Positions 59,806 through 64,000 are shown, numbered from the stretch's first letter. The stretch: DNA of 64,000 nt from an uncultured Lachnospiraceae bacterium (GCA_947173945.1 CAMWGV010000010.1:56-64055); one strand, 5' to 3'. A program made the numbers and translations. Notes: generated from the sequence alone by a model not told the origin.

Positions 59806-59874
59806 AATGTATATACAATCTGATTAATGGCAATACTTTGAATAGTTAGAAATAACATTGGGAGTGTGAAATAT

Positions 59875-60216
59875 TTGATAATCAGACGAGGAGATATATA
59901 TTATGCAGATTTAAGACCTGTAATTGGGTCTGAGCAGGGCGGAATTCGTCCAGTACTTATTATACAGAATGAAGCAGGTAATAAACATAGCTCTACAGTC
60001 ATTATAGCAGCAATTACATCACAACTTCACAAGGCAAAGCTTCCAACTCATGTGGAAATTGATGCAAGGTGTTGCGATATAGCTAAGGATTCTGTTATAC
60101 TGTTAGAGCAGCTAAGAACGATTGACAAACAAAGACTCAAGGAAAAGGTGTGTCATTTGGAGCCGCAAATTATAAAAAGGGTAAATGAGGCACTTAAGGT
60201 AAGCCTTGAATTATAA
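59875..60216 (+). CDS. mazF: MazF/PemK-family endoribonuclease (NdoA-like)
   Basis: [36 protein letters not shown] and LEQLRTIDK motifs. Probable TTG start at 59875 after gggag (track start 59866). Confidence 0.92.
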
Positions 60217-61079: not shown

Positions 61080-61808
61080 ATGTCTGGACATTCGAAATTT
61101 GCTAACATTAAACACAAGAAGGAAAAAAACGATGCAGCGAAAGGAAAGATTTTTACAATTATTGGAAGAGAAATCGCTGTAGCTGTTAAGGAGGGGGGAC
61201 CAGACCCTGCAAATAACAGTAAACTTCGTGATGTTATAGCAAAGGCAAAGGCAAACAATATGCCAAATGATACCATTGATAGGGGTATAAAGAAAGCAGC
61301 AGGAGACGCAGGAGCAGTAAATTATGTGTCGATTACATATGAGGGATATGGACCAAGCGGAACAGCTATAATTGTAAATGCGCTTACGGATAACAAGAAC
61401 AGAACAGCTTCAAACGTAAGAAATGCATTTACGAAAGGAGGCGGAAACGTAGGTACCACAGGTTGCGTGTCATACATGTTTGATGAAAAGGGGCAGATAA
61501 TTATAGATAAACAAGAGTGTGACCGAGACCCTGATGAACTTATGATGCTTGTCCTGGATGCAGGTGCGGAAGATTTTGCAGACGAGGAGGACAGCTACGA
61601 GATAATTACTGCTCCTGTCGATTTCACTGCTGTGAGAGAAGCTCTTGAAAAAGAGGGAATAGCTATGGCGGAGGCAGAGGTGACAATGATACCTCAGAAT
61701 TACGTTGAGCTTACAAGTGAGGATGACATTAAAAAAATGACAAGAATACTTGATATGCTGGATGAAGATGATGACGTTCAGAGTGTATATCATAATTGGG
61801 ACGAATAG
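61080..61808 (+). CDS. yebC: YebC/PmpR-family protein
   Basis: [22 protein letters not shown] and [10 protein letters not shown] motifs. Confidence 0.95.
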
Positions 61809-61810
61809 GT

Positions 61811-62740
61811 ATGGGTTTAATAATTACTTTTTTAATTATTTATAATATTGCATTTAAGAACAATCCGAGAACATATAAGGCTGTTGAGGGCAGAGTCGGA
61901 AAAATGATTACTGCAATCGTTATTATAAGCATACTATTCTCGATAGGTGTTCCGGGTTTCTTTATTATGTCCTTAGTTGCTATTATGTCGCTTGTGGCTG
62001 TATTGGGAGCATTTGCACTGCCGTTCTATCTTATATATGTTGTGTTAAAGTGGCTTGGAATTATCAAAGTCAAAAATAGGCCAGGGCTTAGAAATGAAGC
62101 GGATAGACAGCGGTATGAGAGTGAATTCAATGCATCGAATGGCAGGAACAAAAAAGGCAATGGATTTTCGCTTACGGGACTTACAAGATCATATCCAAAG
62201 AGACGCAAAATTGTTGTAAAATTCAGTAAAAAATACAAGCTGAATCTTACCGAAAAAGAGGTTGAACGTATCGTCGATGCTTCCTACATGTCTTTCTCAT
62301 GGGAGCGGGAAATATACGATATGTCTCAGGAGTATGATGTAATCTCCCAATGGTATAGCAGGGACACAGACTGGCTCAGGGCATACTTGAGAGTATTTCC
62401 GATACAGTCGGTCTCATCAGATTTTGACAGGCAAAAGGCAATATGTCTGGATGTATTCCGGCAGGTGCTTGGGGATATAAATCCGGATAAGTTCTATACC
62501 ATTGACGAGTGTGTAGATTACTTAAATGATAAATACCTTACCACATTTGATGAAGTAACATTTATGATAGCATACAGATTTTTGGAAGCGAACAAGATAC
62601 ATATAGATTTACCGTCACAGCAGGTAGTAAAAGGCAGTTCCGAATTAGAACGCCTGATGAATAAATATGATGATGAAGCAGATGCATTTGTGGGACAGGG
62701 AAGCTACAGTGAGCCTGACCAGACAAGACTTGGAATGTAA
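61811..62740 (+). CDS. Hypothetical membrane protein
   Basis: Hydrophobic N-terminal third and a soluble C-terminal domain; 2 bp after the yebC stop. Confidence 0.75.
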   Translation: MGLIITFLIIYNIAFKNNPRTYKAVEGRVGKMITAIVIISILFSIGVPGFFIMSLVAIMSLVAVLGAFALPFYLIYVVLKWLGIIKVKNRPGLRNEADRQRYESEFNASNGRNKKGNGFSLTGLTRSYPKRRKIVVKFSKKYKLNLTEKEVERIVDASYMSFSWEREIYDMSQEYDVISQWYSRDTDWLRAYLRVFPIQSVSSDFDRQKAICLDVFRQVLGDINPDKFYTIDECVDYLNDKYLTTFDEVTFMIAYRFLEANKIHIDLPSQQVVKGSSELERLMNKYDDEADAFVGQGSYSEPDQTRLGM

Positions 62741-62750
62741 TTGCAAAAAC

Positions 62751-63161
62751 AAAAAAGGGGCTGTCGAGCTAAATGAAAGATTACACTGTACGGCTAGCCC
62801 GCAGCGGTCATATGCTGCTATATTCATATAAAACACGCTTTCGCTCGTCTCCGACGTAACGGTACTAAGAAGTGCCTGTACGGATGCGGCCTATGCAGTG
62901 ACGAAAAACCGTTTGAAGACGTCGGTACTTAAATTGCCGGTCTAGGGATCCTTATATTGGACTATCTTAGACCGGCAATTTTTAGTACCGTTACGTTGGA
63001 GACGAGCGAAAGCGTGTTTTTGGTCACTGCATAGGCTGCATCCGTACAAGCACTTCAAGTACCGACGTCTTCAAACGGTTTTATTATGAATATAGCAGCA
63101 TGTGACTGCCGCAGGCTAGCCATACAGTATAATCTTTCCTTAATGCGGTAGTCTATTTTTT
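62751..63161. repeat. Composite permuted inverted-repeat element (A B C D E | E' B' C' D' A')
   Basis: A 62775-62827 / A' 63086-63138 (47/53); B 62830-62868 / B' 62982-63020 (38/39); C 62869-62902 / C' 63023-63056 (32/34); D 62905-62930 / D' 63057-63082 (26/26); E 62931-62944 / E' 62968-62981 (14/14). Confidence 0.93.
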
Positions 63162-63164
63162 CGT

Positions 63165-64000
63165 TTACTGCAATCTTACAAGGTTAGAGCAGTGGCGGTT
63201 TCCCTGTATATCCTCAAATATGAACATTCCGAAATATGGAATACCGTCAATCATTTTACCGGAAACAGTGGAAAAACCATCTGACACAGGCTGGGTATTA
63301 TAACGAAGTACAAGGTCGCTCCAGTCTGCTTCGTTCAGAGTTGTCAAGTCCTCCTCAGATGTAAATTCATGGGAGAAGGAACCGAAAGCAATATTCTCGT
63401 AATCATTTGGGTTTATTTCATATCTTTCAGGAAATAAATTTGTGGTATCTCCAGACGCAATATTTGCTATAGGATATGTACCAAGCAGTTGTCCACCAGG
63501 GTTTTCTGCTGATACATCCATGACAAAATATGCATATACGGCATCCGCATCATTAATAGTTTCATTAAAAAGAATACTTGAGAGCAAATACCTGGTATAG
63601 GAGTCTGTTTTTTCCTGAATAGTATACATTACCTCATATTGTTCGGATGTCGTATTGTTCTGCATGTAAATTACGTTTCCGTCAAAGTGTGCGGTTGCAG
63701 TTCCTTTCGAATCTATGGATACATCATTTCCCATTGCAACAAACATATAATTAGATGGATTATCCATGTCCGTTCTTGATATTACAAAGTAAGCATTTTC
63801 GCAGCATGCCTGTTGCTCAGGTGTCAATGTTAATGAAAAGCTCATGTCATCGTTTGCTTGCGGAATCATTGTAGCAACATCCCACTCAGCAGAAAGCGTA
63901 TCGGTTCCTGTCAACAATGTTGAAAATGAGGTTATGTATGATGTGTAATTAGGTGCAAAGCTAAATCCCGTGTATGTTGGAATAAAAATGCTTGTGTATT
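63165..64000 (-). CDS. C-terminal part of a large protein, possibly a clostripain-related (C11) peptidase; 5' end lies beyond the window
   Basis: Frame stays open from 63917 to the window edge (...YTSIFIPTYTGFSFAPNYTSYITSF...). The family call rests on weak resemblance only. Confidence 0.45.
   Translation of the reverse strand, partial: YTSIFIPTYTGFSFAPNYTSYITSFSTLLTGTDTLSAEWDVATMIPQANDDMSFSLTLTPEQQACCENAYFVISRTDMDNPSNYMFVAMGNDVSIDSKGTATAHFDGNVIYMQNNTTSEQYEVMYTIQEKTDSYTRYLLSSILFNETINDADAVYAYFVMDVSAENPGGQLLGTYPIANIASGDTTNLFPERYEINPNDYENIAFGSFSHEFTSEEDLTTLNEADWSDLVLRYNTQPVSDGFSTVSGKMIDGIPYFGMFIFEDIQGNRHCSNLVRLQ

Follow-up and report, generated by a model that had tools for sequence, protein, structure and literature searches.

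In a 64,000-nt stretch of DNA from an uncultured Lachnospiraceae bacterium (GCA_947173945.1, CAMWGV010000010.1:56-64055; this whole stretch is referred to as the window), the gap between two convergent genes is filled by a non-coding element of about 410 bp (62751-63161) that resembles a palindrome whose return arm has been put together in the wrong order. The question raised by this locus is what such a "scrambled" palindrome represents: a pseudoknotted structure or switch, one state of an invertible DNA element, or a member of a repeat family, all of which had been proposed in a first-pass annotation of the sequence.

An inverted-repeat search of 62751-63161 returned five pairs in the order A-B-C-D-E-loop-E′-B′-C′-D′-A′ and, together with the ORF map, confirmed that they tile the gap between the convergent genes in the permuted order that the first-pass annotation had described. 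Pairs A, C and E have a common symmetry centre; B and D are shifted to the left and to the right of it, hence the B, C and D pairs cross. The pairs found by this search were as follows.

62772-62840/63073-63141: inverted pair A, 69 nt, 83% identity
62830-62879/62971-63020: inverted pair B, 50 nt, 92% identity
62869-62909/63016-63056: inverted pair C, 41 nt, 93% identity
62905-62937/63050-63082: inverted pair D, 33 nt, 94% identity
62931-62944/62968-62981: inverted pair E, 14 nt, 100% identity

The modules of the element and the two flanking genes are given below in the order in which they occur.

61796-62740, + strand: upstream gene, 314 aa, without Pfam match; its stop codon is about 10 nt before the element
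62751-62766, + strand: O, 5′ arm of the outermost stem, with an A-run before it; terminus found family-wide, consensus GGGGCTGTCGCACTAAG, degenerate in the window copy
62772-62829, + strand: A, 5′ arm of a variable stem; partner A′
62830-62866, + strand: B, constant long box, AAAAC-ACGCTTTCGCTCGTCTCC-GACGT-AA-CGGTACT; 5′ strand of the outer junction, partner D′ via AAAAC, GACGT and CGGTACT
62837-62844, + strand: mini-hairpin within B, GC-TTTC-GC; GC-GAAA-GC on the minus strand
62867-62904, + strand: C, 5′ arm of a variable stem; copy-specific pairing with C′
62905-62929, + strand: D, constant short box, AAAAC-CGTTTGAA-GACGT-CGGTACT, equal to B minus the mini-hairpin segment; 5′ strand of the inner junction, partner B′
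62930-62944, + strand: E, 5′ arm of the conserved apical stem (TAAATTGCCGGTCTA)
62945-62967, + strand: apical loop region, variable
62968-62981, + strand: E′, 3′ arm of the apical stem
62982-63020, + strand: B′, reverse complement of the long box; 3′ strand of the inner junction, with a 2-nt bulge (TT)
63006-63013, + strand: bulged mini-hairpin within B′, GC-GAAA-GC
63021-63057, + strand: C′, 3′ arm of a variable stem
63058-63082, + strand: D′, reverse complement of the short box; 3′ strand of the outer junction, partner B
63083-63141, + strand: A′, 3′ arm of a variable stem
63146-63161, + strand: O′, 3′ arm of the outermost stem, with a T-run after it
63165-63998 and beyond, - strand: downstream convergent gene, continuing past the window end, without Pfam match

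This inverted-repeat layout is far beyond chance. The folding energy of the element was -238.8 kcal/mol, as opposed to -114.5 ± 6.5 kcal/mol for shuffled sequences (z = -19), and the opposite strand gave z = -22.6. The minimum-energy fold contains the outer stem 62751-62766/63146-63161, with its G-U pairs, that had been noticed earlier together with its A/T tracts. Comparison of the modules bore out that B and D have in common AAAAC, GACGT and CGGTACT, D being B without an internal segment of 12-13 nt. The statement that no recombinase or transposase is adjacent also held, the flanking ORFs being without Pfam match.

We consider it probable that, as a whole, the element belongs to a dispersed family of non-coding long hairpins, of which it is a compound copy folded as a nested rod, with a trans-acting factor whose existence we infer, a terminator role and some form of upkeep of its arms. 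Precisely, one hairpin of this family (the J hairpin, D-E-loop-E′-B′) crowns a second junction (B...D′), whose polarity is opposite, with stem C between the two and stems A and O around them. B and B′ (as well as D and D′) look like inverted pairs crossing C/C′ because the same conserved box is present at both junctions, in opposite orientation. Stems A and C drift and yet stay complementary within each copy, the boxes remaining constant even between orthologous copies of different species. The junction may be the recognition site of a putative trans-acting factor that multiplies or maintains the elements, and the A-run, GC-rich outer stem and T-run would allow the element to substitute for a bidirectional intrinsic terminator. 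The arms could be kept complementary through correction templated by the hairpin, or because selection acts on the single-stranded DNA of either strand. In terms of known classes, the element is a REP/BIME/SPRITE-like structured repeat; it is not a shufflon, and a designed pseudoknot is unsupported.

The J hairpin is the basic unit of the family. Over its length of about 100 nt, a lopsided junction, which is conserved, connects a variable stem at the base with a variable stem-loop at the apex. On the 5′ strand of this junction lies a D-type short box (25 nt), opposite to a B′-type long box (37 nt) on the 3′ strand; the blocks by which they pair are AAAAC/GTTTT, GACGT/ACGTC and CGGTACT/AGTACCG. 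The bases that the long box has in excess protrude as a mini-hairpin that, in the B′ sense, reads GC-GNRA-GC, and the long strand also has a 2-nt bulge (YT) between its ACGTC block and its AGTACCG block. The loop of the mini-hairpin was GNRA in 84 of 86 boxes, with GAAA, GGAA, GGGA and GAGA variants, and compensatory variants were found for its 2-bp stem (e.g. ACGAAAGT, in 5-6 boxes). A hammerhead-like reading of CUGAGA...GAAA in B′, made by eye, was rejected, as this segment is not conserved in some subfamilies and Rfam is silent on it.

Using a covariance model of D-E-loop-E′-B′ (R1), matches of about 100 nt were obtained in 72 of the 250 sampled genera of Lachnospiraceae; with gentler filters, the copies per genome reached at least 89, 70, 45 and 36. 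When the same model was run on an order-level sample of 201 genomes, there was no match in any genome outside Lachnospiraceae. The J hairpins of the other genera were always embedded in longer palindromes, with arms that differed between copies. A genome of another genus (G142) has at least 89 near-identical J hairpins, and the unit repeated there extends over outer arms of about 55 nt; insertion into the loops of pre-existing terminators, considered as the origin of the variable outer stems, is therefore unneeded there. Many of the copies in that genome (for example L080, L084, L091 and L099) are within about 100 nt of contig ends, that is, the repeat fragments the assembly. In other genera we also observed inverted J pairs lying side by side, such as L077 1501-1610(-)/1775-1889(+), L092 1304-1402(-)/1501-1599(+) and L090 1501-1596(-)/1674-1786(+); these doublets are REPIN-/BIME-like and are a compound form distinct from the nested element of the window.

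The genome holding the window (G000) is a draft assembly of 2.84 Mb in 108 contigs. It gave about 25 long matches to the window element plus many partial ones, resolved in module maps as about 20 long copies and 6 short copies, the latter of about 160 bp and containing only D...B′ within stems of their own. By searching the exact D-E pattern, the long form was found only in six further uncultured Lachnospiraceae assemblies, of which two carry the label Bacteroides and one the label Clostridium. BLAST detected it in 4 of the genus's 25 species and in none of 16 other families of the order. The compound form to which the window element belongs is confined to a few species of a single genus and, since the J hairpin is present in 72 of 250 genera, it is a lineage-restricted compound of a wider unit. 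The proposal of a MITE/REP-like repeat family is therefore the one that was borne out, both by the dozens of copies in this genome and by the family-wide relative.

A permissive search of the element against Rfam 15 returned only three matches at chance level (E ≥ 2). There was no match in the phage and plasmid collections (blastn, distant mode) and none in IMG/VR by exact-pattern search, and a literature search for the motif sequence, or for REP or MITE in Lachnospiraceae, returned nothing relevant. This Lachnospiraceae-wide family of hairpin repeats is apparently undescribed so far.

The whole set of long copies considered in the comparisons consisted of 43 copies, parsed by a BLAST-seeded scan. 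In the alignment of copies, B (AAAACACGCTTTCGCTCGTCTCAGACGTAACGGTACT), D (AAAACCGTTTGAAGACGTCGGTACT), the E stem and O (GGGGCTGTCGCACTAAG/CTTAGTGCGACAGCCCC) were nearly constant, and strong variation between copies was seen in A, C and the apical loop. The first-pass annotation had taken A, C and E as a constant scaffold with B and D as variable cassettes, and the alignment reverses this for all of them except E. The C arm had an identity of 0.887 with its own C′ and of 0.595 with the C′ of other copies, the own partner being the best one in 40 of 43 copies. The boxes, by contrast, did not resemble their own partners more than those of other copies, the values within and between copies being 0.917 and 0.872, respectively, for B-B′, and 0.950 and 0.946 for D-D′.

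Several copies share their flanks on both sides with copies in other species. Between these orthologous copies, the boxes were 90% identical and the E stem 91%, as opposed to 64% for the C arms and 58% for the A arms, with a random baseline of 51%; despite this divergence, the arms were complementary within each copy. Boxes that remain at 90% and arms that are near the baseline but still complementary point to purifying selection acting on the sequence of the boxes and, for the arms, on pairing only. Copies at shared sites could instead be different family members that repeatedly colonised the same sites.

As regards gene context, the copies in the genome of the window were in 13 convergent, 10 tandem and 1 divergent gene gaps, almost all of them 0-60 nt from a 3′ gene end, and the J copies of other genera were in 10 convergent, 20 tandem and 1 divergent gaps. 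At the site orthologous to that of the window element, four relatives lacking the family have the same convergent genes with only a hairpin of about 40 bp (A-run, stem, T-run) between them, and one of these four simple terminator hairpins is of the O type. The ends of the window element, read directly, are an A6 run, the outer stem and a T6 run. Given the simple hairpin of the relatives and these ends, the element occupies the place of a bidirectional intrinsic terminator and resembles one, and we infer from the sequence that it stands in for such a terminator between the convergent genes. A scan for intrinsic terminator patterns, which takes only loops of 3-8 nt, reported none at the element; in fact, the scan is blind to it, because the outer stem encloses a "loop" of 380 nt.

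Simple hairpins made of O only are common in the genome of the window. In two of them (contig C55:13796-13859 and contig C22:23658-23709) the loop is a 19-nt segment, ATAACATAAACATGTTTTT or its complement, that the long copies C17:9400-9847, C89:5868-6315 and C2:88401-88844 use as a stem arm. These two hairpins look like remnants of long elements after central deletion, and another locus of the same genome is a D-C-B copy with its centre deleted. Central deletion of long palindromes would be a plausible route from long to short forms.

The same gene context bears on a different reading, in which the elements would be genes or cis-elements for structured RNAs (3′-UTR stabilisers, protein-binding RNAs or sRNAs) and the GNRA junction would act at the RNA level. 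Their position directly past stop codons means that the elements are probably transcribed as 3′ ends. Strong stem covariation, a loop restricted to GNRA and boxes conserved between orthologous copies also speak for this reading. Moreover, the G-T wobbles of the mini-hairpin were 8 on the B′-sense strand versus 2 on the other. However, the orientation of the elements relative to the neighbour genes was unbiased, with co-oriented and opposite copies numbering 5 and 5 in the genome of the window and 8 and 12 in the other genera (13 versus 17 in total), and the two strands showed no asymmetry in stability or in G-U content. Since both orientation bias and strand asymmetry are lacking, a constraint at the DNA level (hairpins of either strand, or correction of the arms) fits better than a sense-specific RNA. 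Rfam gave no match, and at least 89 near-identical copies that break the assembly of one genome look like recent proliferation. We consider the structured-RNA reading unlikely.

Whether the modules pair as a nested rod (B with D′ and D with B′) or in the crossing way (B with B′ and D with D′) was evaluated at the 17 positions common to B and D. Double changes that preserve the nested pairing numbered 20 in the 43 copies, as opposed to a single one preserving the crossing pairing. For a formal covariation count, a gap-free alignment of 29 distinct copies and 500 shuffles were used. The nested structure had 8 pairs, with 10 cells changed on both sides, a result reached by 0 of 500 shuffles; in the same columns (34 shared positions), the crossing structure had 1 pair and 1 cell, which is what the shuffles give on average and was reached by 369 of 500 of them. 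RNAalifold, run on D-E-loop-E′-B′, independently predicted, with compensatory changes, the D:B′ pairing, stem E and a small hairpin within B′.

With covariation for the nested pairing and the crossing pairing at chance, the ground state is one nested rod, made from outside to inside of O, A, B facing D′, C, D facing B′, E and the loop. The complementarity of B with B′ and of D with D′ follows from the conservation of the long and short boxes at two junctions of opposite polarity, and the scrambled order is a by-product of one fully nested rod. The rod proposed by the first-pass annotation, with A/A′, C/C′ and E/E′ as stems, B opposite D′ and D opposite B′, is thus correct, with the difference that the regions described there as internal loops pair with each other and covary. 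The kissing of B with B′ and of D with D′, proposed along with it, finds no covariation at the shared positions or in the D-specific part; the B-specific flanks, on the other hand, do co-evolve with B′.

These flanks are the main point for another reading, in which the crossing complementarity is functional, either as a toggle between the rod and a B:B′ helix or through the pairing of two copies via B and D, so that the element would be a switch or a pseudoknotted assembly. The B-specific positions 19-23 were identical to the reverse complement of B′ in 23 of 43 copies (7.4 expected). Considering only one copy per C type, they were identical in 12 of 20 (2.95 expected), and positions 6-7 of B matched B′ in 16 of 20 (9.4 expected). 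The covariation of the B-specific segments with B′ amounted to 21 cells, compared with 9.0 ± 1.9 in shuffles, although the shuffle control ignores relatedness among copies and the coupling could stem from heteroduplex correction. Sibling copies differ at position 6 in both B boxes. The coupling does not extend to the mini-hairpin itself, for which B and B′ agreed in 8 of 20 copies versus 7.9 expected, nor to the D-specific part, which was uncoupled from D′. According to folding predictions, B:B′ pairs first, as a helix of 37 bp, in a strand exposed no further than B′, and the rod replaces it once C′ becomes available. In the full fold, enforcing B:B′ costs 21 kcal/mol of predicted stability relative to the rod.

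The co-variation of the B flanks with B′, which the nested rod does not explain, would fit a B:B′ duplex that forms transiently and extrudes both mini-hairpins, whether it is corrected by repair or kept by selection. A small part of the kissing idea therefore stays alive, for B only. Nevertheless, with covariation in the nested structure and none at the 34 shared positions in the crossing one, we regard a functional role of the crossing complementarity as quite improbable, and we keep the nested rod as the structure of the element.

The order of the modules bears on the remaining two explanations. Every long copy in the module maps of the genome of the window is B-(C)-D-E-E′-B′-(C′)-D′ or its reverse complement, and the 43 distinct long copies parsed, from at least 7 species-level genomes, all have this one order; A-B-C-B-E or A-D-C-D-E was found neither in the module maps nor among the 43 copies. 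A shufflon-like element rearranging between C and C′ (or B and B′), of which the window would hold one state, has long inverted repeats able to support inversion in its favour, but a single order in 43 of 43 copies, no adjacent recombinase and copies scattered at ordinary 3′ gene ends, where they control no coding or promoter segment, make this proposal of the first-pass annotation very improbable. An assembly artefact, in which a dispersed repeat would have been collapsed or joined into a chimera, is practically negligible and, in practice, excluded: J-family repeats do break some assemblies, but the same order and architecture, with copy-specific stems, recurs at 20 loci inside contigs of the genome of the window and in six other independently assembled genomes, and the flanks are syntenic with relatives.

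Complex loci were also observed. At contig C4:74141-74534 of the genome of the window, and in the upstream flank of L042, portions of two oppositely oriented elements overlap or adjoin one another, and an additional D-E-like module lies right beyond a full copy.

The family can be compared with known systems. With the REP/REPIN-RAYT system of proteobacteria it has in common that imperfect palindromes, short and extragenic, occur in tens to hundreds of copies and form hairpins, with constant boxes and variable spacers. REPINs persist by vertical inheritance at orthologous sites (bioRxiv 10.1101/2021.07.10.451892), and the Lachnospiraceae copies are likewise kept at orthologous sites. Unlike in that system, a cognate Y1/RAYT gene is not present in the genome of the window and there is no association with one over 251 genomes. 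In addition, a REPIN is made of two inverted REPs lying side by side and mutually paired, whereas the window element has nested junctions in which B pairs with D′ and not with B′; the Lachnospiraceae motif is three-way-junction-like and not a 14-bp palindrome, and the host is a Firmicute family.

The BIMEs of E. coli are modular mosaics of constant boxes in alternating orientation, with variable linkers. The window family is similar to BIME and BOX elements in being a mosaic of few constant boxes, with short, long and truncated architectures that coexist in one genome. Compared by architecture, a relation in sequence not being expected, it differs from BOX in that there is no tandem logic of the boxA-boxB(n)-boxC kind, the modules of the window element forming one continuous rod with two junctions of opposite polarity. 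BOX of Streptococcus pneumoniae, RUP and SPRITE are covered among other repeat families in PMC10969869, where families resembling intrinsic terminators in look and site are also described. The window family would be similar to the latter, since its A-run, GC-rich outer stem and T-run lie at the 3′ ends of genes, in the place of the simple terminator hairpin of relatives, and it differs from them in being far longer (150-450 bp) and in having a conserved internal junction.

As in MITEs, the element is small (150-450 bp), non-coding, multi-copy and intergenic, with terminal inverted repeats (the O ends) and a stable fold; ORFs of at least 110 aa were absent inside the copies, except for one chance ORF. 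Unlike MITEs, it has no target-site duplication, no parent IS was seen in the genome of the window, and it is palindromic over its whole length. Integron attC sites conserve structure with variable sequence, and have short basal boxes, extrahelical bases that give polarity and a variable terminal structure. The Lachnospiraceae hairpin is like them in its conserved structure, its short conserved boxes, its polarity given by a bulge and its variable tip, but its copies are single and dispersed over many contigs at the ends of housekeeping genes, not in cassette arrays beside an intI integrase.

We searched for a factor that could mobilise the family. Y1/RAYT (PF01797) was absent from the genome of the window, though it was detected in control genomes, and among 251 Lachnospiraceae genomes it was present in 34 of 73 with a J hairpin versus 110 of 178 without (odds ratio 0.54). 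Y1 genes were also absent from the high-copy genomes G142, G124, G172 and G257. Being absent from these genomes and rarer in J-positive ones, Y1/RAYT was rejected as the partner. No target-site duplication was found, the flanks of 18 O-bounded copies being palindromic A/T runs without direct repeats, and no IS with O-type ends was found in the draft assembly holding the window; O...O′ pairs about 1 kb apart were rejected as IS ends because they were chance matches in housekeeping genes, the candidate on contig C20 lying inside hpt/ftsH-like genes. The J copies in other genera had no recurrent neighbour gene but assorted housekeeping genes.

The only multi-copy transposase-like genes in the genome of the window are PDDEXK_2 ORFs (PF12784; C16:796, C2:15413 and C67:112). 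PF12784 was present in 58 of 73 J-positive versus 92 of 178 J-negative genomes, with an odds ratio of 3.6 that ignores kinship, and it was absent from two high-copy genomes. We consider this weak association with the J hairpin as a lead only. A second family of PDDEXK_2 ORFs was observed in the genome of the window at C21:3873 and C2:83855.

Boxes that are conserved while the stems drift to saturation point to a specific partner protein and, the usual partner (RAYT) being absent, a new hairpin-recognising activity could be approached in a tractable way through this family. We give a small chance to a more specific proposal that combines two elements: the junction would be the substrate of a putative non-Y1 hairpin-recognising enzyme or binding protein of Lachnospiraceae, and the B:B′ helix would form first, to be displaced later into the rod, as a two-step switch for copying or for two-way termination. 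If this were true, the family would be a new kind of REPIN-like replicator or structure switch and not just another repeat.

Lachnospiraceae are major bacteria of gut and rumen, and their interspersed repeats are essentially undescribed. The J family is present in about 29% of the sampled genera, with up to about 90 copies per genome; these are located at the ends of genes and probably serve there as terminators. For the annotation of similar genomes, the covariance model is of use together with a simple explanation of "scrambled palindromes".

Two minor observations concern the genome of the window. Its short copies, e.g. those at contig C21:34432-34590 and contig C2:51113-51270, have A/T-rich inner arms in which an outward-facing, extended -10-like TGATATAAA occurs on both sides and may be part of a promoter directed outward. 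In the window itself, an ORF at 59866-60216 (+ strand, 116 aa) is, by eye, PemK/MazF-type toxin-like.
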